From the NCBI GenBank assembly GCA_016933055.1, contig JAFGBS010000001.1, forward strand, positions 90,001-122,000: DNA of 32,000 nt. The letters run 5' to 3'. Under the pieces are notes generated by a model. It had not been told where the DNA came from. It made no database searches and was given only the letters and a program-made list of their open reading frames with translations. Each line of letters opens with the position of its first letter. Positions within the stretch are counted from its first letter, which is position 1. The position numbers and the translations under genes are program-made. Shown here piece by piece: positions 477-17,456 of this stretch. This DNA comes from Promethearchaeota archaeon. Its GTDB lineage: Archaea; Asgardarchaeota; Lokiarchaeia; Sigyniarchaeales; Promethearchaeaceae.

Positions 477-1901
477 ATGAAGTATGAAGAAATTATACAA
501 AGATTGGAGAATTTACGTGAAACTCCACCTGTAGATGTATCAAATTCTGTGATCGAGCCAGCGATTCAAGAATTTTATAAGAGATACCCGAAATCTCTCG
601 CAATGTTCGAAGAAATGAAGAAATACATACCTGGTGGAATTGAACATATGAATTCCATTCAATATCCCTTCCCAATCGTCATAAATAAAGCCCAGGGACC
701 TTATCTATTTGATTTGAATGGAAACAAATTTATAGATTACCTTATGACCTCGGGTCCATGCATTTTGGGTCATAACTATCCTGAAGTGCGAGACTATGTC
801 ATTGAAGTATTAAGAGAAAATGGACCTGCTACAGGAGTCATGTGTGAATATGAGTTACTTGCTGCAAAAAAGATATGCGAGCATATGGAGAACGTAAGTA
901 AGGTAAGATTCTATCAGAGTGGCTCTGAGGCAAATATGGCGATGGCTCGAATTGCGAGGTTGTATACGGATAAGAAAAAAATCATCAAGGTGGAAGGGTC
1001 GTATCATGGATGGGCGGATCAGTTTGTCACGGGACTTCATTTACCAGGGACAGGTCCTATGTTCGCTCATGGCATTCCTCCAGAGCATTATTCTAATACC
1101 GTAGGAGTTATGCCAAATGATATTGAAGGGATAAAGAAAGCGATTTCTGATAATAAAGATAAGGGGGGTACAGCTGCAATTGTGCTAGAGGCATGTGGGG
1201 GGGATTCTGGTACTTTTCCTCCCGCTCCCGGATATTTGGAGGAAGTTAGGGAAATATGCACAGAAAATGATGTGCTACTCGTGTTTGACGAAGTTGTTAC
1301 GGGTTTTCGACTTAGTATGGGTGGAGCTCAAGAATATTATGGAATTGATGCAGATATATCAGTTTTAGGTAAGATTGTGGGTCACGAATACCCTAGTGCA
1401 GGCGCAGTTGGCGCACGAGACGATATCATGCAGATGATTTTGGGAAAGGGAGGAAATAATTCTGAAATCGGTCAAAAAGTCTTTACAGCAGGTACCATGG
1501 CTGGGACTAACTTAACCAGTGCTGCAGCTTATAAAGCAATTGAATGCATCGAAAAAACAAACACTATTGAAATTGCCGGCAAGGTTGCGGATGAACTATC
1601 CAAGGGGTTGAATAAAATCTTCGCAGATTATAAGCTTCCGTTTTTCACATATAATTTCAAATCTATAATCCAGCTGCGTATGTCAGGTTTTTATACTGTA
1701 GATCTAACTAAACCTAACGCAATCAAAGAAGTTTTACAGCGCAGAGAAAACGCAGCAAAATATCAAATATTAGAAGCTCTAGAGGGAATCAACACATTAC
1801 AATCTATCCGAATGTATACCTCATTGATGCATAATGATAATAAACTAATCAATGATACTCTTGTTGGATTCGAACGTATTTGTCAAAAATTATCAAAATG
1901 A
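477..1901 (+). CDS. Class-III PLP-dependent aminotransferase, glutamate-1-semialdehyde aminomutase-like
   Basis: Motifs AQGPYLFDLNGNKFIDY, RFYQSGSEA, EGSYHG, VFDEVVTGFR, DISVLGKIVG (PLP lysine) and AGTMAG. Confidence 0.9.
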   Translation: MKYEEIIQRLENLRETPPVDVSNSVIEPAIQEFYKRYPKSLAMFEEMKKYIPGGIEHMNSIQYPFPIVINKAQGPYLFDLNGNKFIDYLMTSGPCILGHNYPEVRDYVIEVLRENGPATGVMCEYELLAAKKICEHMENVSKVRFYQSGSEANMAMARIARLYTDKKKIIKVEGSYHGWADQFVTGLHLPGTGPMFAHGIPPEHYSNTVGVMPNDIEGIKKAISDNKDKGGTAAIVLEACGGDSGTFPPAPGYLEEVREICTENDVLLVFDEVVTGFRLSMGGAQEYYGIDADISVLGKIVGHEYPSAGAVGARDDIMQMILGKGGNNSEIGQKVFTAGTMAGTNLTSAAAYKAIECIEKTNTIEIAGKVADELSKGLNKIFADYKLPFFTYNFKSIIQLRMSGFYTVDLTKPNAIKEVLQRRENAAKYQILEALEGINTLQSIRMYTSLMHNDNKLINDTLVGFERICQKLSK

Positions 1902-1954: not shown

Positions 1955-2806
1955 TTAATAGTCTCCGGGAGTTTTACTTCGGATTCTCGGAGTTTTTTCC
2001 CGTATTTCTGGAGTTTTGGACTTCATATTTCGCATAAGGTCCTCTAAATCGCTTTGCATTTTATTTACCTTCCGCATTTTTTCATCTAAATCCTTTCTAT
2101 CTCTTTTCATTTGTTTTTGTTCATCTTCTAACCGTGAACGTTCCTTTCTAAGTTGATGTTTTTCATCCTCAATCCGTCTCCTCTCATTCTCAATTTTTTT
2201 ATTTTCATTTTTCAACAGATCATTATCTCGAAGGAGTCTATTGTATTCCTTTTCCTTATCATTAATTTTATTTTCTAATTGTCTCTGCTTCCGTTCTAAA
2301 TCAGGAATTGCCTTTTTATATTTGTTATATTCATCCTCCGCTCGTTTTGCTTTCTCTTCTGCATCACTTTTTCGTCTATTTAAGCGGTCTTCCTCTCTTC
2401 TTTTTTTATCTGCAAATTCTCTTTGATCATCGCGTAATTTTGTTACTTCGCGATTTATAGCATCTTCCCGACGATCTAAACGATCCTTTTCATCTTTCAT
2501 ACTTTTTTGTTGCTTTTCTAACCATGCATTTTCATTTAGGAGTTTATCCCGCTGTTTCTGTAATTCTTTAAGTTCTTGAATAAATTTTTGACGCTGCTGT
2601 TCTAACTCTTCCAAAGATTTAGGATATTTCTCCATTTTCTTTAAGATTTTTTGCCATTCTTTTCGTTCATCTTCTAATTTTTTACGTTCTTCCTCCAGTT
2701 TTTCCCATTGTTTACGAATATCATTCGAATCTACCTCAAGATATGGTTCAGGAGTTTTAGAAATAATATCTTTTGGTGTTTTTGATCGGATCTGCTTTCG
2801 TCCCAT
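1955..2806 (-). CDS. Long coiled-coil protein with SKTP-repeat head and tail
   Basis: 283-aa ORF with an ATG start. Hydrophobic residues fall at exact 7-residue spacing over residues 68-131 (L,F,L,L,L,M,L,I,L,F) and 191-261. The Pro-containing termini carry five (S/E)KTP motifs. Confidence 0.88.
   Translation of the reverse strand: MGRKQIRSKTPKDIISKTPEPYLEVDSNDIRKQWEKLEEERKKLEDERKEWQKILKKMEKYPKSLEELEQQRQKFIQELKELQKQRDKLLNENAWLEKQQKSMKDEKDRLDRREDAINREVTKLRDDQREFADKKRREEDRLNRRKSDAEEKAKRAEDEYNKYKKAIPDLERKQRQLENKINDKEKEYNRLLRDNDLLKNENKKIENERRRIEDEKHQLRKERSRLEDEQKQMKRDRKDLDEKMRKVNKMQSDLEDLMRNMKSKTPEIREKTPRIRSKTPGDY
1968..2017 (-). repeat. Degenerate 21-bp-period repeat encoding three KTP units
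   Basis: ggagtttt occurs at 1968, 1989 and 2010 on the + strand; on the - strand this region encodes MKSKTP-E-IREKTP-R-IRSKTP. Confidence 0.8.
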
Positions 2807-2850
2807 ATATTAAGGTAGATATTATTGACTCAAAAAATTATTGCCCTAGA

Positions 2851-2879
2851 GAATTCATAGAATTATTTTGTATGAATTC
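2851..2879. promoter_or_regulatory. 9-11-9 perfect-arm inverted repeat in the divergent promoter region; candidate operator
   Basis: gaattcata-N11-tatgaattc lies between the divergent starts at 2806 (-) and 2959 (+). Confidence 0.55.
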
Positions 2880-2958
2880 AGCATAGATTTTTATTTTCAC
2901 ACTTTAAGTTGTAAGTACATTTTTTACGATTAGAAAAAAATTTAAATGAGGAATAAGA

Positions 2959-3330
2959 ATGTCAAAAGAATTTGATGAAGATTTAGATGAAGATTTAGAT
3001 GAAGACTTAGAGGAACCTGAGGTAGCATCTAAGACTCCAACCAAGGTTGTATCCAAAACTCCAGCTCCAAGAGTAGCAGGAAATGATCTTTCAATTTTCC
3101 TAATGTCCACTATTGGTCCTGGGGAAAAGAAGCAAAAATTATTAGTTAACACGGGGAATTCGGTCGGGGATATTAAACAGACAGTGGGAAGTATTTTCGG
3201 TGTAGATCCATCCGATTTCCACCTGAGTCATGGGGGAATCACAATGGATGATGGAAATTACTTAAAAGATTATCCCATAAAAGATGGAGATACAGTTCTA
3301 TTAATCCCGGCAAGTACTGCGGGGATGTAA
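2959..3330 (+). CDS. Ubiquitin-like (beta-grasp) protein with acidic N-terminal tail, ending STAG-M
   Basis: Residues ~43-122 align by eye with ubiquitin: SVGDIKQTVGSIFGVDPSDFHLSHGG vs [26 protein letters not shown], and YLKDYPIKDGDTVLLI vs TLSDYNIQKESTLHLV. It is the first gene of the E1/E2/JAMM cassette, with RBS-like gagga upstream. Confidence 0.9.
   Translation: MSKEFDEDLDEDLDEDLEEPEVASKTPTKVVSKTPAPRVAGNDLSIFLMSTIGPGEKKQKLLVNTGNSVGDIKQTVGSIFGVDPSDFHLSHGGITMDDGNYLKDYPIKDGDTVLLIPASTAGM
2974..3009 (+). repeat. 12-bp tandem repeat x3 encoding (DEDL)3
   Basis: gatgaagattta / gatgaagattta / gatgaagactta; one mismatch in the third copy. Confidence 0.95.
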
Positions 3331-3417
3331 TAACAATTTTTCTTTACTCCCTTTTATAAACCAAGTAATCAGAATTAGTTATCCTATACAAGTATTAAAC
3401 TTACCGAGTAGCTTGGA

Positions 3418-4665
3418 ATGTCAGAATCAGATTTTTTTTCAAATAATCTTACAGAAGAAGAACGTGAATTATATGATCGACAATTTCGCTTACAAGGATG
3501 GAATCAAAGCATATTAAAAAACTCTCGAGTATTGATGGTAGGGGTGGGAGGGTTAGGATGTGAAATTGCTAAAAATCTGACAATGGTGGGAGTAGGACAT
3601 ATAGACTTAGTTGATTTGGATGTAATAGAACATTCCAACTTAAACCGACAGATGCTTTTTATAGGTGCGAAGGTTGCTCGTCCGAAAGCTCTAGCAGCAG
3701 TTGATATGCTGAAAAAAATTAACCCAAATATCACCATTAAAGGATATCGTTCCTCATTGGAACAATTACCTCCCGTATTATACAAAAAAGCCGATGTGAT
3801 TATCAGTGGATTGGATTCCATGCAAGCACGCCTAAACCTAAATACTCAAGTTATTCGGTTTAATAAACCTCTCGTGGATGGTGGTGTAAATGGATATCAC
3901 GGTCACATTTATACAATTTTTCCTAAAATAAATGCATGCTTTGAGTGTTATTCCGTTTCCTCCTCTGAAAGTGATGATATGGCTGCATGTACCGTAGTAG
4001 GAATACCCCGCAAACGAATCCATTGTTTGTTTAAAGCAATGATGAAATTTGAGGAGATTAATTCAAATCCCCCTAATGTGAAGAATATTAAAGAACTCAA
4101 ATTTTTGAAGGATAATGCTAATGAATTGGTGGAAAAATTTGGATTCGAACCCCTATTTGAAGAAAAAGAAATCATTCAAATTATTGATCACCATGATCCG
4201 GGAATTATTACCATCAATGCAGTAATTGCGAGCATACAGTCGCACGAGGTGATTAAAATACTGAATTATATTAAGGGTAATAAAGGATTGGGAATTCCGA
4301 ATAAATCTTACATTATCTATAATGGTATGACAGCTCGATTTTATCATTTGGACAAACCACGGAATGATAAATGCCCTCAATGCGGGGATGACGTCCTTTG
4401 GGAAGACTTCTATTTACGCAAAGATCAGCCCCTACAGTTAATTATTGATGGATTGAAAATGAAAGGTCATAACTTAGATTCTGAAATGGAACCGATTATA
4501 ACCATACCAGATTTTAACTCCATTCGGGAACTGGATCTGCAGAGAACTGTCCTGGAAAATAGATTGTTTCCACTCTCATTACTCACAATTTCTGGATTCA
4601 CAGAAGGGGATATTTATGTTACTCTGCATATATTCAAAGATAAGACCCTCAAACACAGTTCATAA
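3418..4665 (+). CDS. Ubiquitin-activating enzyme E1 (ThiF/MoeB superfamily, UBA3-like)
   Basis: YDRQ, GVGGLG and DLDVIEHSNLNRQ adenylation motifs. Zn motifs CFEC and CPQC. The catalytic Cys191 segment ACTVVGIPRKRIHC matches UBA3 MCTIASMPRLPEHC. There is a ~90-aa C-terminal extension. Confidence 0.93.
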   Translation: MSESDFFSNNLTEEERELYDRQFRLQGWNQSILKNSRVLMVGVGGLGCEIAKNLTMVGVGHIDLVDLDVIEHSNLNRQMLFIGAKVARPKALAAVDMLKKINPNITIKGYRSSLEQLPPVLYKKADVIISGLDSMQARLNLNTQVIRFNKPLVDGGVNGYHGHIYTIFPKINACFECYSVSSSESDDMAACTVVGIPRKRIHCLFKAMMKFEEINSNPPNVKNIKELKFLKDNANELVEKFGFEPLFEEKEIIQIIDHHDPGIITINAVIASIQSHEVIKILNYIKGNKGLGIPNKSYIIYNGMTARFYHLDKPRNDKCPQCGDDVLWEDFYLRKDQPLQLIIDGLKMKGHNLDSEMEPIITIPDFNSIRELDLQRTVLENRLFPLSLLTISGFTEGDIYVTLHIFKDKTLKHSS

Positions 4666-4695
4666 TAAATATAAAAAATATCAAAAGGAAGAAAT

Positions 4696-5223
4696 ATGTC
4701 AATCAGACAAAAGCGAGTATCCCAAGAATTTGCTCGTTTGAAGAAATTGTATAAAGAAGGTACAATCAAACAGCTGAAAGCTTTTGATTCCGAGAAAAAA
4801 AGTATTGATCATCTGAAGATCCTAATTCAAGGACCAAAAGGAAGTGCTTATCAGGGAGGTTATTTCAAATTAGAAATGAAATTTCCTAAGGATTATCCAA
4901 ATCAACCCCCCTTCGTACGACTACATACTCCTATTTGGCATCCCAATTTCTGGCCTAAACCAACGGAATACTCAGGTCAACGGAATATTTGTTTAGCATT
5001 AATAGATCCAAATTTTATCGGGAAAAAAGGCGGATGGAGCCCATCCAAGACTTCTGTGACGGTCGTACAAGCAATTATTGCAATGTTGAACACTTCGGGA
5101 CAATATATTAACCCTACTGATGTTTTTAACAAAAAAGCAGCCCTGGAAATGATGGAAAATCGAAAGAAATTTGATAAAAAGGTTAAAAATCTTGTTAGAA
5201 AATATGCCAACCAAAAATGGTAA
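4696..5223 (+). CDS. Ubiquitin-conjugating enzyme E2 (UBC fold)
   Basis: GPKGSAYQGGYFKLEMKFPKDYPNQPP, HPN (82-84), catalytic Cys99 in NICLAL, WSP, and NPTDVFNKKAA. Confidence 0.95.
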   Translation: MSIRQKRVSQEFARLKKLYKEGTIKQLKAFDSEKKSIDHLKILIQGPKGSAYQGGYFKLEMKFPKDYPNQPPFVRLHTPIWHPNFWPKPTEYSGQRNICLALIDPNFIGKKGGWSPSKTSVTVVQAIIAMLNTSGQYINPTDVFNKKAALEMMENRKKFDKKVKNLVRKYANQKW

Positions 5224-5243
5224 TTGGAGGATAGGTCACCGAA

Positions 5244-6044
5244 ATGGACGACGAAGAATCAATGGATATTGAAAGCTTGAAAGAAAAGTTAAAAGCTGAA
5301 ATGCTCCAAAAATTACGCAAAGAAATTAAAAAAGAAGTACTAATGGAGATTTACAATGAATTAAAGTCTGAAGAGAAAGAGACAATCCAAAATAAAATTG
5401 CACATGAAAATCATGAGATCGGAAAATATGAATCTGATTCCAAAGGAGAACTCGTAAGAGAGGGCACAAAGAAAGAAAAAGTTCTTGTTCAAATTAAAAC
5501 GATTATGAAAGTTGTATCCCATGCTTTGAAATATGCTAACAACAATATCCCTAAAGAGTACTGGGTAGAAGTAATCGGTTTGTTATCGGGAAAATTCGAC
5601 CAGAAAAAAAATATTGTCACAATCGAAGATGCTTATCCAATGGGACATGGAAATGCTGTGTACGCCGAAATTAAAGATTATAAGAATTTTGTAAGAGCCT
5701 ATCAAGATTTAAGTTCTAAAGGGCAATTTATTTGCGGTTGGTATCATTCTCATCCTTCATATGGGCTTTTTTTATCTTCTGAAGATATGGGGACTCAAGC
5801 CCGATATCAGAAATTTTGGGATAAATCGTTGGCTTTAGTAATTGATCCCACCCAGATAGATGGAAATAAATTGGGATTCGACATCTTTCGAGCGAATATG
5901 CGAACAAAAAAGTGGTATAAAGTTCCTTTTTTAATCGAAGGAAATTTAGATGCAAAATCTTTACCGGGATTGGTTGATTTCGTGAATCCCATTGTTGAAG
6001 GAAAGAAAATATTTTTAGAATATGATGAATCTACCAGCGGATAA
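5244..6044 (+). CDS. JAMM/MPN+ metalloprotease (Rpn11-like deubiquitylase or maturase) with N-terminal extension
   Basis: E109 in EVIGLL and an intact H168-S-H170-x7-S178-x2-D181 JAMM motif (GWYHSHPSYGLFLSSED); ALVIDP follows. Confidence 0.95.
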   Translation: MDDEESMDIESLKEKLKAEMLQKLRKEIKKEVLMEIYNELKSEEKETIQNKIAHENHEIGKYESDSKGELVREGTKKEKVLVQIKTIMKVVSHALKYANNNIPKEYWVEVIGLLSGKFDQKKNIVTIEDAYPMGHGNAVYAEIKDYKNFVRAYQDLSSKGQFICGWYHSHPSYGLFLSSEDMGTQARYQKFWDKSLALVIDPTQIDGNKLGFDIFRANMRTKKWYKVPFLIEGNLDAKSLPGLVDFVNPIVEGKKIFLEYDESTSG

Positions 6045-6121
6045 GCCTTTTATCTTTATTTTTTGTTTATTCATCATAAGCCATGCTTTTAGGATATAAT
6101 TAATTATATTGTGTGATTTAA

Positions 6122-7312
6122 GTGCAAAAAAGAATTCTAAAAATCATAATATATGTGGTCATAATTGGACTTAGTCTTCTGATTGGAGTGATATTAGGCT
6201 ATACTCCCTCCAATTCTCTGAATGGATTCTTTTCATTTTTATTCATTGGTATCTGGTTGTCATACACTATTACCGTCTTGTTTCGAATTAAAAAAATGAG
6301 AGAATACCATTCTTCGTTAAATAATGCTCTATTAATATTCGGTGATTTATTCATTTCGGCATTTTACGGAATATGGGGTGATTTTACCCCTATTCTTATT
6401 CAAAGAATATTTCCCACTACATCTATGAAAATTAATCTCTGGACTGCGACTTTCTCTTTGCCATACCTAATATTTGGGACCTTCCTTCTACTTTTCTCTA
6501 TTACTAAATATTTTGCAGTATATCTCGGTAATAAAGCAATCAATGCTCGAAAATTTACAATATTTACGGGAATTGTGTTTCTGGGACTAGATTTAAGCTA
6601 TATATTATTGCGGCAAGGAATATACACCTTAGATTTTTTGGATCTCTCTCACCTATATGGAACTTTCAACGTGTATATCACCGTACATATGGGGATTATC
6701 GTGTTTTTTGGAATAGTGGGGATTATAACTCGAAATCGTTCGATGACTTCATATAATTTAGATCAACTCACCTCTCGTATGAATGATATCGATCGTCGTA
6801 TCAATGATGCCGAAATTGCCTCTGCAGCAGCACAAAGGAGTGAACAAAGGGCCCGGGATGCTGAAAAAGAGCGGCAAAGGCGTATAGCTCGCGCTGAACA
6901 ACGAAAAAAGGATAAATCTCTGAAACAACAACGTTCTTCCCCTAAAGTTTTACGTCCCACTTCCACAGCTCAATCTTCACGAAAGACTTCTGCATCTAAA
7001 TCTCGGGGATCCTCGTTAAGTGCTAAACAATTGATGGAAATGAAGCCTAAAACGGGTACTTTGAGTAAGGAGGACTTTATGTGCATCTTTTGCTTTGAAC
7101 TGCCAACTACTTCTGATAAGGGACGTGGTATTGTATTATGCCCCCACTGTCGTTATCCGGCTCATTATGACGAGTTTATGAAGTGGGTACGAAATTCAAA
7201 TTTGTGTTCCCGCTGTGATGGAGTGATACCTGCTAGCTTTATTCGCAACCCTACAATCATCCCAGTCAAAACCTATCTAAAAGTTTATAAACATTTTAAA
7301 AAGTACTTTTAA
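6122..7312 (+). CDS. Multi-pass membrane protein with C-terminal RING-like zinc finger; putative membrane-anchored E3 ligase
   Basis: GTG start. About six hydrophobic segments in residues 7-202, then a charged helical linker, an S/K/R-rich spacer, and C321-x2-C324...C340-x2-C343-x4-H348-x2-E351-x3-W355...C362-x2-C365. Confidence 0.8.
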   Translation: MQKRILKIIIYVVIIGLSLLIGVILGYTPSNSLNGFFSFLFIGIWLSYTITVLFRIKKMREYHSSLNNALLIFGDLFISAFYGIWGDFTPILIQRIFPTTSMKINLWTATFSLPYLIFGTFLLLFSITKYFAVYLGNKAINARKFTIFTGIVFLGLDLSYILLRQGIYTLDFLDLSHLYGTFNVYITVHMGIIVFFGIVGIITRNRSMTSYNLDQLTSRMNDIDRRINDAEIASAAAQRSEQRARDAEKERQRRIARAEQRKKDKSLKQQRSSPKVLRPTSTAQSSRKTSASKSRGSSLSAKQLMEMKPKTGTLSKEDFMCIFCFELPTTSDKGRGIVLCPHCRYPAHYDEFMKWVRNSNLCSRCDGVIPASFIRNPTIIPVKTYLKVYKHFKKYF

Positions 7313-7399: not shown

Positions 7400-8824
7400 T
7401 TAAAGATTTAATCTGGATAACTCTTTTTTTATGTCTTCAACTTTTTCTTTTGTTAAATTATACATACAAATCATCAAGATTGTCCCTAACAGATAAAATA
7501 GGGCAGGAACTAAAGACATGTGTATTCTAACACCCCATTGTACAATTAGAGTCGCAGGGAGTTCTGGATCGTAACCCGTTATGTTGTGTATCACACCAAT
7601 GGCAACTGCTTGAATCACAATTGCAAATCGGCCAAAGAATGTGCGTATCCCAACAAAAATTCCCTCATTTCGCTTTCCCGTTTTTACTGCTATCTCGTCC
7701 AGCACATCTGATAAACCTGGATACATTAATGTCCACATAGCTGAGATACTAATCCCAAGAAAGAAAGTTATGATTATACCAGAAATTAAATTGTCTGCAA
7801 AAAAGAAGAACTCGAATAACCATACAGTTGATGCCAATCCTCCCAAAATAAATGCCTTTCGATTTCCTAATTTTCTCGCAACCCACGTCCATATGGGTAC
7901 TGATAATATTACTCCTATCAACAAGGCTGCGGACACATAAGTTTCAATTTCTGCATTCGTGGAATCAAGTATATCCTCAATCCAGAACGGAAGAGATCCC
8001 AACATAAGACTCGTCATAACCATGTGGCCTAGAAAGAAGATTATATAACTCATAAAATTCTTTTGTTTCAGAGAAAACAGTAGCGAATTCCAATAACTCT
8101 CTTTCTTTCCTTCCTTTTTCAGTACTTGTTCTTCTTGAATTAATTCCCATTGTCTCTGTTTAGTCGCTTCATCTTCCCGCATTCCTGGAATAATCAATAA
8201 TGCAATACCTACTGCAACTGCGGCAACAAAAATTCCTTGTAGAATGAAACCAAAGACATTTTCATAATCTCCAACAATCATTGGAGGAACTAAGATACCT
8301 AATACAGTACCAATGATCCCCCATATGGTGGTAGATGCTCCAACTCTTGTTCTTTCTTCTTGAGTTCGAAATTTTACCGGGAATAGGGCTAGCCAGTTCA
8401 ACTGCCATAAGGAGAAAAGCATATCAAATAGGCAAATAGTCCCAAGTAGCCAGAAGAACATGCCCAAAGCATTAAGAGGAGGTACCGTAAAAATGATCAG
8501 ATAAGACAATGCAAATGGGATGGACGCGCCTATATACCATGGAAATCTACGTCCCAATCGTCGAATCCATTTGTATGGTCTATCTGAAAGCCATCCTGCA
8601 AATGGATCATTCAACATATTGAATATGCCATAAATTATTATCGCAATTGCCACATATGCCCCCGGTATATTTAACACATTTTCATAGAAATGATACACAC
8701 GGATACTGAATGCGGATGTCGTAAAATTATCCAAAAATCCTCCTAATCCATACGAGTTATGCATCAAGAACCGTTTCCAATTCGTTTTTCGTTTTTCTTC
8801 ACGTGTTTGAGTTCGTATTTCCAA
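7400..8824 (-). CDS. MFS transporter, GPH/MelB-like cation:sugar symporter family
   Basis: NMLNDPFAGWLSDR motif, EERTRV, DVLDEIAVKTGKRNEGIF and ~12 hydrophobic segments. The tracked start is TTG; the true start is uncertain. Confidence 0.9.
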   Translation of the reverse strand: MEIRTQTREEKRKTNWKRFLMHNSYGLGGFLDNFTTSAFSIRVYHFYENVLNIPGAYVAIAIIIYGIFNMLNDPFAGWLSDRPYKWIRRLGRRFPWYIGASIPFALSYLIIFTVPPLNALGMFFWLLGTICLFDMLFSLWQLNWLALFPVKFRTQEERTRVGASTTIWGIIGTVLGILVPPMIVGDYENVFGFILQGIFVAAVAVGIALLIIPGMREDEATKQRQWELIQEEQVLKKEGKKESYWNSLLFSLKQKNFMSYIIFFLGHMVMTSLMLGSLPFWIEDILDSTNAEIETYVSAALLIGVILSVPIWTWVARKLGNRKAFILGGLASTVWLFEFFFFADNLISGIIITFFLGISISAMWTLMYPGLSDVLDEIAVKTGKRNEGIFVGIRTFFGRFAIVIQAVAIGVIHNITGYDPELPATLIVQWGVRIHMSLVPALFYLLGTILMICMYNLTKEKVEDIKKELSRLNL

Positions 8825-8843
8825 AATATTTTTCCTCCAAATT

Positions 8844-10268
8844 TTAATTTACATGAAAAGGAACCTTTGCACCCGGTTCCAAAGGTGATATATAGGGATC
8901 TTTCTCTAGTTTGGCGTGTAATTCACCTTGTGCTTTCGAAATTAATTCGGGATTTTTTATGAATTCCACACTTGCTTCAGCAAGAATCCTGGCGGCATTA
9001 ATCATCCCTTTATAAGCAATAGAACTTTTATTTTGAGCTACTCGCTGCCAGCTATGACCTGGTGTACTTATGGAGTAGCATGCTTCCTTAAATTCTCCCG
9101 TAGGGACAACCCAACATACATCAGCGACATCAGTGCTTCCCGGAATTGTAATATCCCGCCCAAATATCGGCAAATTTACATCACACAAAACTTTACCTTC
9201 AAAGACTTGTGCGAGCGGTAGAAATTCCGCAGGAATAATAGACCTGATCGCATCAATGAATTTCACAGGAATGGTTTGTTCAAATTTTTGCGCTAGTTCT
9301 TCATCTTCGGTATCGAATTTTGGTGCTCCTATTTTTTCCATTGTCTTTTGAAGAACTTCTTCTACAACGGAATTCGAAAGATAGTTAGAGCATCCTCCTA
9401 CTTGTTCAATATTCACCGATGTTTCGGTCATTACTGCCGCTCCGTTTGCGACTTTCTTCAGTCGCTCAAATATTTCATTTACTTGCCGGATATTCGGAGC
9501 TCGAATGTAATAATAGGACTCTGCATATTCCGGTACGATATTGGGAGCATCCCCCCCTTTTGTGATAATATAATGCATTTTTCCCTGTGTTGTAATATGT
9601 TCACGCAGGTAATTTGCCCCCACATTCATTAATTCAACTGCATCTAACGCGCTTCTTCCACGATGGGGGTCACTTGCAGCATGTGCACTAGTACCATGGA
9701 ATTTAAAGAGTACTTTTATAACGGCTTCGGAATTCTGTACATTTACCATATTAATGGCTTCGGGATGCCAAGTCAAGGCAATATCTACATCCTGAAACGC
9801 TCCATCCCGTACCATGTAAACTTTCGCACTCCCCCCTTCCTCGGCGGGACAACCATAATATCTGATTGTCGCTTGGATCTCTTTCGCATCAATTGCTTGT
9901 TTTAATGCAAGACATGCCATCATAGGTGCTACACCCAATAAATTGTGTCCGCACCCATGACCTGGACCGCCTTCTTCAATCGGGTCCTTGTAAGGAACGG
10001 GCTTTTGGGACATCCCTGGTAAGGCATCGTATTCCCCCAACAATGCAATGACAGGTTTTTCTGATCCATATTCTGCAATAAAAGCAGTAGGAATATCAGC
10101 CACATTCTCGATCAATCTAAATCCATGTTCATTAAGAATGGATTTTAACAATGCGGCGGATTTATATTCTTTCCATTTTAGTTCTGCATATTCCCAAATC
10201 TTATCACTTGTATCGATCGCGAGTTGGGAATGCTCATCAATCCAGTTTTGCATATCCATACAAATCAT
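8844..10268 (-). CDS. abgB: M20-family amidohydrolase, p-aminobenzoyl-glutamate hydrolase subunit B-like
   Basis: LGEYDALPG, GHGCGHNLLG, YYGCPAEEG, WHP, GSTDVADVCWVVPT and PGHSWQ. The family is recognised; the substrate is not established. Confidence 0.85.
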   Translation of the reverse strand: MICMDMQNWIDEHSQLAIDTSDKIWEYAELKWKEYKSAALLKSILNEHGFRLIENVADIPTAFIAEYGSEKPVIALLGEYDALPGMSQKPVPYKDPIEEGGPGHGCGHNLLGVAPMMACLALKQAIDAKEIQATIRYYGCPAEEGGSAKVYMVRDGAFQDVDIALTWHPEAINMVNVQNSEAVIKVLFKFHGTSAHAASDPHRGRSALDAVELMNVGANYLREHITTQGKMHYIITKGGDAPNIVPEYAESYYYIRAPNIRQVNEIFERLKKVANGAAVMTETSVNIEQVGGCSNYLSNSVVEEVLQKTMEKIGAPKFDTEDEELAQKFEQTIPVKFIDAIRSIIPAEFLPLAQVFEGKVLCDVNLPIFGRDITIPGSTDVADVCWVVPTGEFKEACYSISTPGHSWQRVAQNKSSIAYKGMINAARILAEASVEFIKNPELISKAQGELHAKLEKDPYISPLEPGAKVPFHVN

Positions 10269-10367: not shown

Positions 10368-12662
10368 ATGACTGAGCAATCGGGGATCATAAAGGTCCGG
10401 ACTACTTGCCCTATGCATTGCGGAATTGAGGCTTGTGGATGGCTTGTTTCTGTGAATAAGAAAACAGGACGAGCAATAAAAATAGAACCGGGAGAATTTA
10501 TGGATCCATCCGAACGGAGAATTTGTCTACGTGGACTTTCTCAATTAGATTATACGTACCATCCCGATCGGATAAAAACTCCCTTAAAAAGGGTGGGTAG
10601 GCGTGGTGAGGGAAAATTTGAATCTATTTCTTGGGAAGAGGCGCTTGATATAATTGAAAAGAATTTTAAGGAGATAGCTGAAAAATATGGCTGGAGGGCA
10701 TTGGGATGGGTACTCGGAGGAGTAGGGGCGGGTTCCACGAAGTTTGGAGTATATTTACGCTTAGCGAGTTTAACCAAATCTACTCGAGTCTCTGCTTGGG
10801 GCTATGGTGATAGTGGTCTTCCGTGTGGGTCGAGAATCATTTTTGGATCCCAAATTCCATACGGTCAATTAATGCACCGTTTGATTGATCCTCCCGATCC
10901 TGATCTGATTGTAGTTTGGGGATGCAATCCGGGTGAAGCAGCTCCCTTGCGATGGTTTCGACCCATTATGGACATAAAAGAGCGTAGTGGCACAAAGATG
11001 GTAACCATTGATCCGAGATTCACGGTCACTGCCAGTAAGAGTGATGCCTATCTTGGACTGCGTCCGGGAACTGACACTGCTCTCGCTTTAAGCCTGCTTA
11101 ATATCATTTTCAAGAATGGATATCAGAAGAACGACTATATACGAAAATATACAAATGGTCCTTATCTGGTTCGACTTGATACGAAAAAGTTCTTACGAGG
11201 AAAGGATATCAGTGATAGTAAATCCAAGGCTGATCGATATGTGATAATTGACCATGAAAAAAATGAGCCGAAAATCCTCAGAGGAAGTACCAAGAGTGCA
11301 GCATTGACAGGAATCTATACTGTGAATGGAATTGAATGCAAAACAGCACTTCAATTACTCATGGACTTAGCGGACGAACTTCCCCCTGAGAAAGGCTCTG
11401 AAATTACTGGAGTCTCTGCGGAATTAATAACTAAACTTGCGCATGCGATAGGAAAGGCTAAAACTACAACATTTTGCATTAATATGGGATTTACTAGAAC
11501 CTATCATGGTCATACTAGCCTCAGAGCAATGGGAACCATTGCAGCAATAACAGGTAATGTGCGAGCGGAGGTAGGAAAAGGAAGAAACTTCCCGGTTCTC
11601 AATTGGGATCCCTTCCTAAAAGCTAAACCGGATGAGAGATCCTACCATCGACTCGGAATTTTGAATATGTATGATGCAATTGAAAAGGGAGACCCTTTTC
11701 CCATCAAAGCTGTATGGTTCGCCTTGACAAACTTTGTAAATCAATGTGCGAATAGTGGAAAAATTGTAAATACGCTCTTCAATAATCTCGATTTTATTGT
11801 GACGGTAGACACTTTTCTTACAGACACCTGTAAATGGTCAGATCTCGTTTTACCTACTACTAGTATATTAGAATTCAGCGATTTCATACCGCATCCCTAC
11901 CCTTATGTATGTATCCAACAGAAGGTTATTGAACCCTTATATGAATCGAAATCTGATGTGAATATTGCATCTGCAGTGGCTGAACGTTTGGGATTCGGTG
12001 AATATTTCCAAGGTGGGGAGGACGGAATGATTGATTTACTCCTCGATACTGATCATTTGAGTATGGATGGCATTACCCGAGAAAGTATAATCGCAAATGG
12101 ATGCTTCCAACTTCTCAATCCCATACCGGAGTCAATGGAAACAATGCCGTTTCCTATGCGTACTCCAAGTAAGAAAATCGAGATTTACAGCGATTTTGAT
12201 TACCTAATTGAAGCAGGAGAGGAGCTTCCCTATTATAAAGCAGCGCTTGATTCTCCTATTAAAAATATCGCAGAAGGTTTTCCGCTAACCTTTATTCAAG
12301 GACACACACGATTTAGAACTCATTCGATGTTTGGAAATGTTGATTCTCTTCTAAAGATGAATCCCGAACCCTTATTGGATATGCATCCGAGAGATGCTGA
12401 AGATCGCGGACTAAAAAATAATGATATGGTAGTAATGTATAATGGTTTGGGCAACGCAATATTGAAATTACGAGTAAATGAGGGAATTGTCCCGGGTACC
12501 GTTAATCTCTCCGAAGGTTGGTGGTTAAAGGATTTTAAGGATGGTGGGGTTAATTTCGTTACCCATGATATCGTGAATCCTGTTCAGGATAAAATCTACG
12601 AACCTAATATGTCGATGAACAGTGCGTTTGTTGAGGTGAAAAAATATAAGGAGGAGATCTAA
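10368..12662 (+). CDS. Molybdopterin (bis-MGD) oxidoreductase catalytic subunit, DMSO reductase family, no Tat signal
   Basis: N-terminal C14-x3-C18-x4-C23...C53 Fe-S motif, HPDRIKTPLKRVG, LRPGTDTALAL, DLVLP, HTRFRTHS and MHPRDAEDRGL. No twin-arginine leader. Confidence 0.93.
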   Translation: MTEQSGIIKVRTTCPMHCGIEACGWLVSVNKKTGRAIKIEPGEFMDPSERRICLRGLSQLDYTYHPDRIKTPLKRVGRRGEGKFESISWEEALDIIEKNFKEIAEKYGWRALGWVLGGVGAGSTKFGVYLRLASLTKSTRVSAWGYGDSGLPCGSRIIFGSQIPYGQLMHRLIDPPDPDLIVVWGCNPGEAAPLRWFRPIMDIKERSGTKMVTIDPRFTVTASKSDAYLGLRPGTDTALALSLLNIIFKNGYQKNDYIRKYTNGPYLVRLDTKKFLRGKDISDSKSKADRYVIIDHEKNEPKILRGSTKSAALTGIYTVNGIECKTALQLLMDLADELPPEKGSEITGVSAELITKLAHAIGKAKTTTFCINMGFTRTYHGHTSLRAMGTIAAITGNVRAEVGKGRNFPVLNWDPFLKAKPDERSYHRLGILNMYDAIEKGDPFPIKAVWFALTNFVNQCANSGKIVNTLFNNLDFIVTVDTFLTDTCKWSDLVLPTTSILEFSDFIPHPYPYVCIQQKVIEPLYESKSDVNIASAVAERLGFGEYFQGGEDGMIDLLLDTDHLSMDGITRESIIANGCFQLLNPIPESMETMPFPMRTPSKKIEIYSDFDYLIEAGEELPYYKAALDSPIKNIAEGFPLTFIQGHTRFRTHSMFGNVDSLLKMNPEPLLDMHPRDAEDRGLKNNDMVVMYNGLGNAILKLRVNEGIVPGTVNLSEGWWLKDFKDGGVNFVTHDIVNPVQDKIYEPNMSMNSAFVEVKKYKEEI

Positions 12663-13247
12663 ATGGGGTCACAATATGGTCTAATCTTTAATCTGGAGCG
12701 CTGTATCGGATGTGAGGCCTGCACTGTCGCATGCAAAATCGAAAATAATTTTATTACGGACACCATCCAAGTGAAAACATTGAATACAATCAATAAAGAT
12801 ACCCCCACAGGATCTTTTCTTCAAGGAAATCTACGAATGGAATTCCAACCGCATACTTGTAATCATTGTGAGGACCCTCCTTGCGTAGAAGCATGTAGCT
12901 TTAATGCTTTAATCCAACGAGATGATGGAATTGTAGTTTTGAACCAAGATAATTGTACGGGATGCCAGACATGTGTTACAGCGTGCCCCTATGGAGCGAT
13001 TCACTTTAACAAAGATAGTAATATAGCAGAGAAATGTAATTTATGTTCCCATCGAATCGATCAAGGATTGGAGCCTTTTTGCGTTATTTGTTGCGAAGGA
13101 CAGGCAATTTATTTTGGGGATTGGAATACTCCGCAAGGAAAATTTGCGGTAAAAGATAGAAAAGATGAGCTATATGTTCGCAATCCGGAATTCAACACAA
13201 AACCTAAAATAAAATACCTTCCATTGAAGAAACCTCGAGGATTATAG
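12663..13247 (+). CDS. 4Fe-4S electron-transfer subunit (DmsB/NrfC-like)
   Basis: CIGCEACTVAC, CNHCEDPPCVEAC, CTGCQTCVTAC and KCNLC...PFCVICC. It starts immediately after the upstream stop codon. Confidence 0.95.
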   Translation: MGSQYGLIFNLERCIGCEACTVACKIENNFITDTIQVKTLNTINKDTPTGSFLQGNLRMEFQPHTCNHCEDPPCVEACSFNALIQRDDGIVVLNQDNCTGCQTCVTACPYGAIHFNKDSNIAEKCNLCSHRIDQGLEPFCVICCEGQAIYFGDWNTPQGKFAVKDRKDELYVRNPEFNTKPKIKYLPLKKPRGL

Positions 13248-13341
13248 ATCCCACCTACCAAGTATTTCTTTTTTTCCAGACTATTTTTAAATCGACTCGT
13301 TATGAAAAACCTAATTAATGTGAATCCCTATCGATCTCATT

Positions 13342-14835
13342 ATGAAAAATGCTTATACCGAATTAGCAGCCCACATGAAAGATATTAAACTTCTGGGTAC
13401 CGCAATGTCGATTATAGGATGGGATATGAGAACGGTCATGCCGAGTGAGGGTGCCGCTCAACGAACTGAACAACTTGCGTTACTCTCCAAAGTAGCTCAT
13501 GATTGGATGATCTCGGATAAAACAAAAAGTCTTCTTGAATCTGTACACGAATTAGAGGATTTGAATAATGTTCAATTACGAAATCTGGAGTTATGGCAAC
13601 GAGATTTCGATTTATCGACGAAATTACCTTCAGAATTCGTAAGGAAATTCGAAAAACAAAGACGAACAACCGAAACATTGTGGATAAAAGCTCGACCGAA
13701 AAATGATTATAAGATGGTTCAACCCGAACTTCAGAAACTTTTTGAGTTACTCCAGAAAAAAGCTTCCTATCTTGATCCCTTGAAACATCCATATGATGTT
13801 TTAATCGATTTATACGAGAAAAACGCAACACAGAAAGATATTGATAGTTACTTTGGACCATTAAAAACTGGTATAATGGATGTGATGCATAAATGTTTGC
13901 AATCTTCAGTAAAGCCAAACCCGAATATACTTAAAATCCATGCAAATGTTGAATTCCAGAAAAGGTTTTCTGATCTGTTATGGAAATTAATGGGAATGTC
14001 ATCAGATCGTTCTAATTTATTTGAAGCTGCTCATCCATTCACAACAGGCTATGCAAAAGATGTAAGAATCACCACTCATTATCATGAAGATGATCCCATA
14101 AAAGCCAACATGTTTTCACTCATTCATGAAGCAGGACACGCGTTATACGAGTTAAATCTTCCTGAAGAGCATTGGTGGACTCCCGTTGGAAGTTCTATCA
14201 GTATGGGAATTCATGAATCGCAGAGTCGTTTTCCTGAAAATATTCTGTGTAAAAGTCGTGAATTCTTGACTTATATATATCCTCACCTTCAAGAGATTTT
14301 AACGGGTTATAAGGAAATTCCGCTTGAAAATTTTATTTTAGCAGTTAATATTGTAAATCCTTCCCTCATTCGGATTTATGCCGACGAAGTAACATATAGT
14401 TTACATGTTATTCTGCGATATGAAATTGAAAGGGATTTGTTTAACGATAAAACAACAATTACGGAATTGCCACATGTGTGGAACCAAAAAATGCGCGATA
14501 TACTCGGAATTGAAGTTCCGGATAACAAGGATGGGGTATTACAAGACACTCATTGGTATCAAGGCTTACATGGATATTTCCCAAGTTATGCTTTGGGCAA
14601 TATATATGATGGAAATCTGCTGTACGCGATGGAGAAAGAAGTTCCCAATTGGAAAGAAGAGATTGCGAACGGAAATCTAATGCCAGCGATGAGTTGGATG
14701 AAAGAAAATGTGCATAGACATGGTTCTATGTACGATCCGATTGATCTTATCGAAAAAGTTACAGGTGAAAAACCGAATTCGAAATATTTCGTGCAATATT
14801 TGAACGAAAAATTTAGTAAAATCTACAAATTCTAA
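13342..14835 (+). CDS. Carboxypeptidase, peptidase family M32
   Basis: HPF, HEAGH (HEXXH), HESQ, IRIYADE, QDTHW, GYFPSYALG. Confidence 0.95.
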   Translation: MKNAYTELAAHMKDIKLLGTAMSIIGWDMRTVMPSEGAAQRTEQLALLSKVAHDWMISDKTKSLLESVHELEDLNNVQLRNLELWQRDFDLSTKLPSEFVRKFEKQRRTTETLWIKARPKNDYKMVQPELQKLFELLQKKASYLDPLKHPYDVLIDLYEKNATQKDIDSYFGPLKTGIMDVMHKCLQSSVKPNPNILKIHANVEFQKRFSDLLWKLMGMSSDRSNLFEAAHPFTTGYAKDVRITTHYHEDDPIKANMFSLIHEAGHALYELNLPEEHWWTPVGSSISMGIHESQSRFPENILCKSREFLTYIYPHLQEILTGYKEIPLENFILAVNIVNPSLIRIYADEVTYSLHVILRYEIERDLFNDKTTITELPHVWNQKMRDILGIEVPDNKDGVLQDTHWYQGLHGYFPSYALGNIYDGNLLYAMEKEVPNWKEEIANGNLMPAMSWMKENVHRHGSMYDPIDLIEKVTGEKPNSKYFVQYLNEKFSKIYKF

Positions 14836-17189: not shown

Positions 17190-17456
17190 GTGAAAATCGT
17201 CATTCATGCATACCGAGAGGGTAAAAAAATCTATTATCGGGGTGATTTTGAGATATCGCCTAATATGACACTGGAATCAGTGTTAAAAACACTCGGAAAT
17301 AAAATTGGAGAACCCTTACTTGAAATTGTCGAAGATAAGTCCGAATTTACCATAGTAGTATTTAATAATGTAGTAGTAGAGTTTGAAAAAGAACGTAACC
17401 GGACAGTCACAAATGAAGACACTTTGAAATTATTTCCCCAAGTTGTCGGAGGGTAG
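17190..17456 (+). CDS. MoaD/ThiS/SAMP-like ubiquitin-fold protein ending in GG
   Basis: 88 aa with a GTG start; C-terminus EDTLKLFPQVVGG matches the (D-x-L-x-L-F-P-x-V-x-G-G) pattern. Confidence 0.85.
   Translation: MKIVIHAYREGKKIYYRGDFEISPNMTLESVLKTLGNKIGEPLLEIVEDKSEFTIVVFNNVVVEFEKERNRTVTNEDTLKLFPQVVGG

Follow-up and report, generated by a model that had tools for sequence, protein, structure and literature searches.

In Caldiarchaeum subterraneum, an operon encoding a ubiquitin, an E1-like and an E2-like enzyme, a small RING finger protein and an Rpn11-like protein has been reconstituted (PMC5654768). Lokiarchaeal ubiquitin genes occupy a discrete 'Ub region' that is separate from the genes for ESCRT (Hatano et al., 2022, PMC9192718), and a Helarchaeial E1/E2/RING cascade modifies UEV-Vps23 at K201; a gene neighbour can be the substrate of an Asgard cascade (bioRxiv 10.1101/2023.07.25.550441). 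UFM1 homologues have also been reported in Asgard archaea (PMC12962969).

The locus described here lies in a window of 32,000 nucleotides from a Promethearchaeota genome (GCA_016933055.1) and brings together the five functional parts of the Caldiarchaeum operon, likewise as a single prokaryotic gene cluster. Both systems have a short single-chain E1 bearing a catalytic Cys. The present locus differs in its RING, which is small and soluble in Caldiarchaeum and here forms the C-terminal domain of a six-helix membrane protein, in its ubiquitin-like modifier (Ubl), which ends in Ala-Gly and carries an acidic leader and lysine motifs, in a seven-residue loop insertion before the E2 Cys, and in a dedicated motif-bearing partner gene. 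With the ESCRT-linked Asgard systems it shares the phylum and the enzyme families. However, no ESCRT family was detected by Pfam in the whole window, and a UEV gene is likewise absent from it. Moreover, the Helarchaeial cascade uses a tag with a Gly-Gly end and a soluble RING, and its substrate is read by an N-terminal loop of the E3, whereas here reading is predicted to involve the E2 and a linear motif. From computation only, we propose that the locus encodes a functional, self-contained Ubl module whose E2 reads the motif hydrophobic-x-x-K-T-P and whose main client is the protein encoded next door, a reading whose chances we consider evenly balanced.

Genes and enzymes of the locus

The open reading frame list places six genes at 1955-7312: coiled coil, Ubl, E1, E2, JAMM and six-helix membrane protein (Table 1). 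The preliminary description had reported five co-oriented genes with intact E1, E2 and JAMM motifs and a head-to-head coiled-coil gene, and the coordinates, the gaps (87, 30, 20 and 77 bp from the Ubl to the membrane protein), the Pfam matches and an alignment of 21 orthologues all agree with it. It was equally right about a self-contained Ubl/E1/E2/JAMM/membrane-RING module in an Asgard genome with no ESCRT gene nearby. As a whole the locus cannot be called undescribed, since the enzyme cassette itself is already known from Loki-type Asgard archaea, including the Lokiarchaeal 'Ub region' (PMC9192718); what goes beyond it is the co-inheritance of the partner, the placement of the KTP motifs and the E2 docking model. 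The genes flanking the module are metabolic. The divergent spacer contains a 12-nt imperfect inverted repeat (2851-2879), which is not conserved in the three related loci compared and thus gives no evidence of shared control.

Table 1. Features of the locus (positions in the window)
Feature	Position	Strand	Details
Coiled-coil partner, 283 aa	1955-2806	-	short basic head, long helical rod, short basic tail
Partner tail motifs MKSKTP, IREKTP, IRSKTP	1967-2026	-	residues 261-280; candidate acceptors K264, K271, K278
Partner head motifs IRSKTP, IISKTP	2750-2791	-	residues 6-19; candidate acceptor lysines K9, K17
Divergent promoter region, partner gene vs operon	2807-2958	.	152-bp spacer
Ubl, 123 aa	2959-3330	+	Pfam ubiquitin 1.8e-8; weak PDB matches to ubiquitin
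Ubl tail motifs VASKTP, VVSKTP	3022-3063	+	residues 22-35; lysines K25, K33
E1 activating enzyme, 415 aa, single chain	3418-4665	+	Pfam ThiF 1.9e-56; catalytic Cys191 at 3988-3990
E2 conjugating enzyme, 175 aa	4696-5223	+	Pfam UQ_con 2.1e-28; catalytic Cys99 at 4990-4992
JAMM/MPN metalloprotease, 266 aa	5244-6044	+	Pfam JAB 3.5e-14
Membrane E3 candidate, 396 aa	6122-7312	+	full-length model pLDDT 82.4
RING-like C-terminal domain	7019-7309	+	about residues 300-396

The Ubl consists of an acidic leader (residues 4-21), the two tail motifs and a beta-grasp fold, and its C-terminus reads ...PASTAG plus one additional Met. Among its orthologues the sequence to Ala-Gly is invariant, 83 of 115 stop exactly at that Gly, and 112 of 115 carry one to three motifs between the acidic leader and the fold.

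The E1 comprises an adenylation domain, the catalytic Cys, two C-x-x-C pairs (Zn site) and a C-terminal extension. Its closest solved relative is UBA3, the catalytic subunit of the NEDD8 E1 (1.8e-35 over residues 30-385, catalytic Cys aligned), and its match to UBA5 is far lower (6.5e-14). The G-x-G-G-x-G motif, Cys191 and both C-x-x-C pairs are kept in 21 of 21 aligned orthologues. In the E2, HPN occupies residues 82-84 and is followed by a family-specific loop (85-97), with about seven extra residues between HPN and Cys in an alignment to Ubc15; the segment N139-A149 completes the predicted motif-binding surface. HPN and Cys99 are kept in all or nearly all of the 21 aligned orthologues, and most residues of the loop and of segment 139-149 are invariant or nearly so, distant lineages included. 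The JAMM protein, which has a charged helical N-terminal extension of about 75 residues, finds its best solved relative in 6fju, the Rpn11-like protein of Caldiarchaeum, with Rpn11 and CSN5 next. Its Glu109 and H-S-H-x7-S-x2-D motif (H168-D181) are kept in all or nearly all of 21 orthologues, and it probably both trims the extra C-terminal residue of the Ubl and reverses conjugation.

The membrane protein has six predicted transmembrane helices (about residues 2-202), from which alone we infer its membrane localisation, then an extended charged helix (213-269) that a disordered linker connects to the RING-like domain. Neither Pfam at its threshold nor a PDB sequence search detected a RING in this protein. 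Two models and fold searches nevertheless support a RING/U-box fold for the C-terminal domain: the last 100 residues modelled alone reached a pLDDT of 90.5, and all 50 of the 50 best PDB fold matches of the domain model were RING or U-box. In addition, related entries in the AlphaFold DB carry the automatic name 'RING-type domain-containing protein', weak Prok-RING_1 matches occur in 17 of 18 orthologues, and the ligands of the domain follow a conserved pattern (C-x2-C ... C-x2-C-x4-H-x2-E ... C-x2-C), accompanied by an invariant Trp.

This assembly resembles the UFM1 system (UBA5, UFC1 and the membrane-anchored UFL1 complex) in a single C-terminal Gly that would be exposed by trimming, a short E1, and ligation that would take place at the membrane. 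The Ubl, in contrast, matches the ubiquitin family, and up to E = 0.1 no Ufm1-family Pfam match was listed for it; the E2, with its HPN, belongs to the canonical UQ_con enzymes, the E1 is nearer UBA3 than UBA5, and the protease is a JAMM.

The coiled-coil partner and the KTP motif

The partner, which ends in an aromatic residue, matches only coiled-coil-type families of Pfam, NCBIfam and PADLOC, all below threshold, and the matches of its Atlas model are coiled-coil domains. Lack of synteny in relatives had been named beforehand as part of a refutation of the proposed pathway, and this refutation fails: of 20 relatives fetched from four families, 18 have the order partner, divergent from Ubl, then E1, E2, JAMM and RING, and so do most of another 80 loci, among them that of Ca. 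Lokiarchaeum ossiferum. Across about 100 related loci, the partner is divergent to the Ubl in the majority. Within the same family, partner and Ubl are present at the cassette locus in G009 and G013; neither was found in G010, G011 (both single-contig) or G004, in which E2 matches were at paralogue level only and the cassette-type E2 was not found. The module is patchy even within genera (G013 vs G010; G008 vs G011 and G004), and its family occurs in 71 of 201 sampled Asgard genomes. Similar downstream gene orientations at many related loci suggest vertical inheritance in a stable place.

The preliminary description also noted a peptide motif common to the coiled-coil protein and the modifier, which proved to be conserved in the orthologues of both. 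Among the 3213 putative proteins of the genome, only the partner and the adjacent Ubl have at least two copies of I/V/L-x-x-KTP; the partner has five KTP, four of them in this form, and the Ubl two. Against a genome background of 0.154 KTP per 1000 residues, rough Poisson estimates for the excess are about 1e-9 for the partner and 2e-4 for the Ubl, and the shared motif far exceeds chance expectation. Other proteins of the genome contain about 160 single KTP sites, so that substrates are not definable by the motif alone.

In the partner, the copies are tandem and heptad-spaced. Of the 147 KTP motifs in 53 partner orthologues, every one falls in the first 50 or the last 40 residues, and the rod of these 53 contains none; orthologues have one to five motifs at the N-terminus, both ends bear motifs in 44 of the 53, and Ile occupies position -3 in 95% of 141 motif instances. 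At the same terminal positions some orthologues have another residue in place of Thr (KVP, KYP, KRP, KHP, KAP), and distant lineages have Ile, Val, Phe or Lys there. This persistence of Lys and Pro while Thr varies speaks for the lysine and against a phospho-threonine. In the distant lineages the neighbour gene encodes a Lys/Pro-rich disordered protein with 11-13 K-x-P observed against 5.5-8.7 after shuffling, clearly above the shuffle in four of six; since this is only about twice the expectation from composition, a widening of the motif to K-x-P is only suggestive.

The E2-motif model and competing readings

A model of four chains (E2, RING domain, Ubl core and the 40-residue C-terminal tail of the partner) gave a complex score of 0.61, compared with 0.01 for the best control, and replacing the E2 abolished the score. 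Of 80 solved complexes 58 attain this mark, as do 2 of 110 mismatched pairs; the four-chain set-up with its own alignments departs from that calibration. The partner had a pLDDT of at least 58, and at least 83% of the contacts were common to the runs. In this model RIRSKTPG (R274-G281; tail numbering 31-38) contacts E2 residues 86, 91-92, 95-97, 99, 104, 140-146 and 149-150: K278 touches the catalytic Cys99, and the Thr-Pro packs against the invariant family-specific loop. Across the family most of the contacted residues vary little or not at all, and W86, Y92, V143 and F144 are missing from the second E2 of the genome. Part of the score could stem from solved E2-substrate structures known to the model, for instance Ubc9 bound to consensus peptides, and what the loop serves could instead be the donor tail with its unusual Ala-Gly.

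With its lysine modelled in the E2 active site, the motif makes the partner a candidate built-in, dedicated substrate of the module, with a SUMO-like recognition code. In the SUMO pathway, Ubc9 reads a psi-K-x-E consensus, and SUMO-2/3 chains grow via the consensus lysine of the N-terminal tail. Here, too, the E2 itself is modelled to hold a short linear site with its lysine at the catalytic Cys; the loop that precedes the Cys and a C-terminal segment together build the site, and the flexible N-terminal tail of the modifier bears the same site. The motifs differ, with a hydrophobic residue at -3 and Thr-Pro at +1/+2 here, but a hydrophobic residue at -1 and an acid at +2 in SUMO. The E1 is a single chain closest to UBA3, the protease is a JAMM and not a ULP/SENP cysteine protease, and the E2 shows no specific kinship to Ubc9, as its scores with Ubc15 and with the E2-R and E2-G types are equal or better. 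The module is therefore SUMO-like in its working, yet not a member of the SUMO pathway, and the 'SUMO-like logic' proposed earlier gains computational support from the docking of the motif lysine at Cys99 in a model that passes its controls.

The motif might instead be a non-covalent docking element, with the partner as a scaffold, adaptor or pseudo-substrate regulator that places the E2 or charged E2, and the Ubl tail as an auto-inhibitory competitor for the same groove. Synteny, co-occurrence and motif data fit this equally well, the complex model shows binding and not transfer, and tandem heptad-spaced copies are frequent in avidity-type docking sites. In UEV domains, which have the E2 fold, a groove beside the vestigial active site accepts short P(T/S)AP peptides, a precedent for peptide docking on the same E2 face. 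We nonetheless consider this unlikely, as the modelled lysine contacts the catalytic Cys99 itself and, besides Pro, Lys is the sole persisting residue, an invariant lysine at the thioester for which docking has no obvious need. General ubiquitylation, for example ERAD-like quality control of membrane proteins, would place the substrates elsewhere and make the partner merely a neighbour that is conserved and co-regulated, its KTP sites having a different role, for instance in proline-directed phosphorylation or in nucleic-acid or membrane binding. The E3 is a predicted integral membrane protein, the archaeal cascades known so far show auto-modification and broad action in vitro (PMC5654768), and the basic head and tail of the partner contain T-P dipeptides, KTP being found at many other sites in the genome. 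The replacement of Thr in orthologues and distant lineages runs contrary to a phospho-site, and the rare motif in the Ubl tail, the joint absence of partner, Ubl and cassette-type E2 within one family, and the docking model would be unexpected for an unrelated neighbour, which leaves this reading quite improbable.

Bacterial E1-E2-JAB phage-defence operons (CBASS Cap2/Cap3, Bil) are similar in their compact E1, E2, JAB and sometimes Ubl, and in their patchy distribution. An accessory conflict or defence system of this kind, tagging an invader protein with the partner as sensor or decoy, would suit the patchiness within genera and the HerA-like ATPase fused to motif and Ubl domain at the same locus in some relatives; HerA-type ATPases are common in defence islands. 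PADLOC E1-E2 models also match the E1 (up to 6.8e-17), but only in the generic ThiF core and far more weakly than UBA3; the E2 and JAB matches are marginal, and Ubl, RING and partner have none. Given also the metabolic flanking genes, the stable downstream orientations and the spread of the family among Asgard genomes, we regard a defence role as highly improbable. The module further differs from the bacterial operons in that its enzymes are separate proteins of eukaryote type, accompanied by a membrane-anchored RING E3 and by a partner that the host encodes.

Proposed working of the module

If the partner is the dedicated client, Met123 would be removed by the JAMM or another peptidase and expose Gly122 of the Ubl, which, as family knowledge suggests, would be adenylated by the E1, taken on Cys191 and then transferred to Cys99 of the E2. 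The E2 would hold the motif by its own surface with the lysine toward Cys99, the Ile at -3 being modelled on segment 140-150 and the Thr-Pro on the family-specific loop (W86, E91, Y92, Q95-N97) and F144. Discharge may be activated by the six-helix membrane RING protein at the cytoplasmic membrane face. Lysines at both ends of the coiled-coil rod would thus be decorated, linear chains could form via the same motif in the Ubl tail, much as with SUMO-2/3, and the JAMM would reverse the modification. The covalent cross-linking of rods suggested in the preliminary description is unlikely: with a single C-terminal donor carboxylate, the Ubl may decorate a lysine or form linear chains and cannot bridge two substrate lysines. 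Each Ubl would add a strongly acidic leader to a basic head or tail, likely a switch in what the rod ends bind.

The conjugation locus and its place among known systems

All six genes of the proposed ubiquitin-like conjugation locus are found, in the ORF listing of the window, where the preliminary description had placed them. In this genome (G000; 3.76 Mb in 36 contigs, ~35% G+C), of which the window is C16:90001-122000, the five co-oriented genes are separated by 87, 30, 20, and 77 bp, and a spacer of 152 bp lies between the gene of the ubiquitin-like modifier (Ubl) and the divergent coiled-coil gene, hereafter called the partner. The remaining genes of the window encode metabolic, transport, and repair proteins and, as had been claimed, no ESCRT component is present among the proteins encoded there. 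The module is flanked by metabolic genes, which specify a class III aminotransferase, a GPH-type MFS transporter, an M20 peptidase, an M32 carboxypeptidase, a creatininase-family protein, and a molybdopterin oxidoreductase with its 4Fe-4S subunit; this content suggests amino-acid or peptide catabolism, unrelated to the tagging module. The inverted repeat of the divergent promoter was considered as evidence of co-regulation and rejected as a conserved operator, because no similar repeat occurs in the equivalent spacer of three relatives, where different palindromes or A/T runs are found. As for expression, almost none of the window's sequence words occur in two metatranscriptome runs from the source study.

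Coordinates of the locus, its surroundings, and related features (G000, source genome; L numbers, related loci)
Feature	Sequence	Position	Strand	Remark
Partner (coiled-coil protein)	window	1955-2806	-	candidate substrate
Imperfect 12-nt inverted repeat	window	2851-2879		GAATTCATAGAA / TTGTATGAATTC; divergent promoter
Ubl	window	2959-3330	+	
E1	window	3418-4665	+	
E2	window	4696-5223	+	
JAMM protease	window	5244-6044	+	
Membrane RING protein	window	6122-7312	+	
K-P-K-x-G-x-L stretch	window	7046-7069		directly before the RING
Metabolic flanks	window	477-1901, 7400-10268, 10368-14835, 17430-18323		
Second, shorter ubiquitin-family gene	G000:C17	520646-520900	-	beside a small GTPase-like gene
Second E2	G000:C22	160041-160550	-	
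Third ThiF-family protein	G000:C27	25483-26238	+	within a 550-aa open frame
Protein adjoining the partner gene	L066	11075-12814	-	HerA-like ATPase fusion
Protein adjoining the partner gene	L072	1910-3718	+	
Protein adjoining the partner gene	L051	8496-10253	-	
Expanded locus of sister family f3	L047	1972-2400, 2421-3227, 4253-4579		example
Module of Ca. Lokiarchaeum ossiferum	CP104013.1	~3.531-3.543 Mb		

The catalytic motifs of the E1, the E2, and the JAMM protease, already described as intact, proved to be fully conserved across 21 aligned orthologues. The E1 (Pfam ThiF, 1.9e-56) possesses an adenylation domain and a catalytic cysteine; its G-x-G-G-x-G motif, Cys191, and both zinc C-x-x-C pairs are kept in 21/21 orthologues, and residues 30-385 align with UBA3, the catalytic subunit of the NEDD8 E1 (1.8e-35), with the catalytic cysteine in register. 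The E2 (Pfam UQ_con, 2.1e-28) is a canonical enzyme of the UBC fold, in which H82-P83-N84 and Cys99 are likewise kept in 21/21 orthologues. It is closest to Ubc15 and to the E2-R and E2-G types, with Ubc9 not far behind, and has ~7 extra residues between HPN and the catalytic cysteine. In the JAMM protein (Pfam JAB, 3.5e-14), which is of the MPN+ type and has the Caldiarchaeum Rpn11-like structure 6fju as its best solved relative, the conserved residues are those of the E...H-x-H-x7-S-x2-D pattern. The Ubl (Pfam ubiquitin, 1.8e-8) is a beta-grasp modifier with an activatable C-terminal glycine: its orthologues are invariant in sequence through ...PASTAG, and 83 of 115 stop exactly at that glycine, the others having 1-7 variable residues beyond ...AG. 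In the window, one additional methionine follows the glycine and must be removed. For this set of sequences, the proposed role is an ATP-dependent thioester cascade that leads to isopeptide formation.

The claimed RING of the membrane protein escaped sequence methods: none was detected by Pfam (E up to 0.1), which gave no domain match for this protein, or by a PDB sequence search, and sequence profiles for RING stay under threshold. However, structure prediction and fold search support a RING fold. The last 100 residues were modelled with a pLDDT of 90.5 from an 18-sequence alignment, and the 50 best PDB fold matches to this C-terminal domain are all RING or U-box E3s (best E 8.6e-4, TM ~0.5-0.6). 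The conserved ligand pattern is C-x2-C, C-x2-C-x4-H-x2-E-F-x2-W, C-x2-C, in which Glu351 appears to replace one of the eight usual metal ligands of the predicted RING; this is the position of the sixth ligand in RING-H2 fingers. The tryptophan is invariant in the orthologues, and a tryptophan at this place is typical of E2-binding RINGs. The full-length model (pLDDT 82.4) comprises six transmembrane helices, then a long charged helix and a disordered linker that leads to the RING. By the positive-inside rule, the RING would be cytoplasmic, given the basic residues that occupy the N-terminus and follow helix 6. A fold search of AlphaFold DB clusters returned no informative known relative of the membrane domain; the full-length matches were only auto-named RING-type proteins resembling its own family and one uncharacterised helical protein. 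The conserved K-P-K-x-G-x-L stretch (residues 309-316; Pro309 invariant, Leu314 nearly so) could be an auto-modification or E2-contact element.

The enzyme cassette itself is already known, since Lokiarchaeal Ub genes have been described as a discrete region apart from the ESCRT genes (Hatano et al., 2022). The modifier, E1, E2, RING fold, and JAMM features of the Caldiarchaeum/Asgard-type cassette are all present here. In contrast, no specific kinship with the SUMO system was found: Ubc9 is not the nearest match to the E2, the E1 consists of one chain that is nearest UBA3 and not of an SAE1/SAE2 pair, the protease is a JAMM and not a ULP/SENP enzyme, and the Ubl matches the ubiquitin family. 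The UFM1 system also differs, with no Ufm1-family match listed for the Ubl at E up to 0.1 and with UBA5 (6.5e-14) far behind UBA3 as a match to the E1; UFC1-type E2s lack the HPN that is present here, and their system has the UFSP cysteine protease instead of a JAMM. Against the curated PADLOC models of bacterial defence operons (CBASS Cap2/Cap3, Bil), only the ThiF core of the E1 finds a match, up to 6.8e-17; with these models the E2 reaches 7.7e-4 and the JAB domain 1.2e-4, and the Ubl and the RING protein have no match.

The partner gene and its distribution

What goes beyond the known cassette is the partner gene, with its synteny and co-occurrence. In the literature searched, no substrate or recognition rule is reported for the Lokiarchaeal cassette, and the partner gene, the motif treated below, and an E2-level recognition rule are all undescribed for it. 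The synteny check, proposed as a possible refutation, favored the partner: in 18 of 20 fetched relatives, an orthologue (26-67% identical) is divergent to the Ubl gene. In 80 further loci, wherever the sequence reaches far enough upstream, the genes generally follow the arrangement partner< Ubl> (membrane-Ubl< x< Ubl>) E1> E2> JAMM> RING>. As to what the partner is, its Pfam matches are to coiled-coil families only, under threshold. An Atlas search gave generic coiled-coil look-alikes with scores of at most 0.83, and SMC, Rad50, JetC, and LmuB were rejected because the NCBIfam/PADLOC matches are compositional and far under the cut-offs.

Of 40 relatives from four families of the order, most have a cassette-type E2 orthologue (67-86% identical), and nearly all have another, paralogous E2. 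Sampling of the phylum recovered the Ubl family from 71 of 201 genomes, representing 19 of 59 genera. The related contigs belong to Promethearchaeota (Loki-type Asgard archaea), including the cultured Ca. Lokiarchaeum ossiferum B35, which has the module, so that conjugates could be sought in real cells. A wider, class-level range, read from MAG labels (Thor-, Odin-, Hermod-, and Hodarchaeota), was not used and is not claimed, because at least some such contigs (e.g., those of relatives G029 and G023) are placed in the window's own order. One contig labeled as a Nanopelagicaceae (actinobacterial) MAG (L091, DATKTW010000176.1) carries this Asgard cassette, its E2 being 78% identical to that of the window, and is probably mis-binned.

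In the family of the window, genomes G009 and G013 have both the partner and the Ubl at the cassette locus. With the queries used, neither was found in G010 and G011 (both single-contig) or in G004, and the E2 matches in these three are paralogue-level only. This pattern suggests joint gain or loss of the six genes, even inside a genus. The module is patchy within genera: it was not found in G010, G011, and G004 but is carried by G009, G013, and G008.

The KTP motif and its predicted docking on the E2

A recurrent consensus, I-x-x-K-T-P, surrounds lysines of the partner and of the Ubl tail, which are candidate acceptors. In the source genome, where the background is 0.154 KTP per 1000 residues, five KTP are found in the partner (four preceded at -3 by I, V, or L) and two in the adjacent Ubl; among 3213 putative proteins, these are the only ones with two or more such motifs. 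The 147 KTP of 53 distinct partner orthologues all lie near the ends, 64 within 50 residues of the N-terminus and 83 within 40 of the C-terminus, with none (0/147) in the rod, and both ends bear the motif in 44 of the 53 proteins. Ile occupies position -3 in 95% of instances, and Lys or Arg position -2 in 85%; copies are often seven residues apart, and the last residue is aromatic in most partners. Similarly, 112 of 115 Ubl orthologues have 1-3 motifs between the acidic leader and the fold. Some partner orthologues have KVP, KYP, KRP, KHP, or KAP at equivalent terminal positions; Thr varies where Lys and Pro persist, which points to the lysine and speaks against phosphorylation. The neighbor gene of distant lineages encodes a disordered protein, basic and rich in Lys and Pro, in which K-I/T/V-P units are numerous. 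However, the K-x-P excess is only ~2-fold over shuffles of the same composition, and a K-x-P generalization of the motif is therefore suggestive.

Co-folding, as recommended in the preliminary description, was performed on four chains, namely the E2, the RING domain, the core of the Ubl, and the 40 C-terminal residues of the partner, with an orthologue alignment for each, and predicted contact between the tail and the E2. The score was 0.61 against 0.01 for the best control. Of the solved complexes, 58 of 80 reach this mark, as do 2 of 110 mismatched pairs, a calibration that holds only roughly for our own alignments and for four chains. The partner has a pLDDT of at least 58, at least 83% of the contacts are common to the runs, and the score fell to 0.00 when the E2 was replaced. 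Confident contacts join tail residues 31-38 (RIRSKTPG) to E2 residues 86, 91-92, 95-97, 99, 104, 140-146, and 149-150. In the model, the motif lysine touches the catalytic Cys99, Thr-Pro rests on W86, Y92, and F144, and the Ile at -3 on segment 140-150. Most of the contacted E2 residues are invariant or nearly so, distant lineages included, and W86, Y92, V143, and F144 are absent from the second E2 of the source genome. The modeled geometry resembles Ubc9 holding a SUMO consensus site, and the score may partly reflect solved Ubc9-type complexes known to the predictor.

Readings of the locus and variants in relatives

A consensus-site Ubl system would account for the observations most economically; all the support for this mechanism is computational. 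The E2 would read hydrophobic-x-x-K-T-P, and the membrane RING would activate discharge; the co-inherited rod would be decorated at both ends, the Ubl tail would accept further tags, and the JAMM would trim the Ubl and reverse the modification. More speculatively, addition of the strongly acidic leader to the basic rod ends might switch binding partners. The covalent cross-linking of rods suggested earlier is not expected, because each Ubl has a single donor carboxylate; decoration or linear chains are expected instead. In its full form, we advance this reading tentatively, at somewhat below an even chance: in Loki-type Asgard archaea, an invariant, family-specific E2 loop would read I-x-x-K-T-P and set its lysine on the thioester, the genetically linked client would have sites at its ends only, and the tag's tail would present the same site for chain growth.

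Three other readings compete with the consensus-site system. The motif might be a non-covalent docking element. Alternatively, the cassette might be a general membrane quality-control ligase and the coiled-coil gene an unrelated neighbor. An accessory defence module would agree with the patchy distribution and with the HerA-like ATPase-Ubl fusions of some relatives, but the PADLOC results, the metabolic flanks, and the recurring downstream gene arrangement speak against it.

Asgard ubiquitin cassettes are central to ideas on the origin of eukaryotic protein tagging. If true, the consensus-site system would supply the Lokiarchaeal cassette with its first recognition rule and with a candidate for a natural substrate; its confirmation would mean that consensus reading at the E2 level is not peculiar to SUMO and that Asgard archaea tag a cytoskeleton-like rod at the membrane. 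If it is refuted, the locus stands as a further example of a cassette already known. Taken together, the terminal lysine motif of a co-inherited partner, its recurrence in the Ubl tail, and an E2 loop predicted to read it allow a concrete and cheap experiment.

Several relatives have variants of the locus. In three of them (L066, L072, and L051), a protein of ~580-600 aa adjoins the partner gene. In L066, this protein combines a HerA-like ATPase (DUF87 / HerA_C) with KTP motifs and, at the C-terminus, a Ubl domain, which ends in ...STAG plus a short extension; with this ending, the whole ATPase might be activatable and conjugatable. Sister family f3 (L039-L050) has an expanded locus with two free Ubl paralogues: that beside the partner gene has a long acidic leader, and that beside the E1 a short one. 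Between them is the gene of a membrane-anchored Ubl-domain protein that ends in ...IPSRK, without a terminal glycine. In the source genome itself, further tagging genes are scattered: the second ubiquitin-family gene, the second E2, which shares 34% identity with that of the cassette, and the third ThiF-family protein may belong to a separate tagging pathway that is not organized as one operon.
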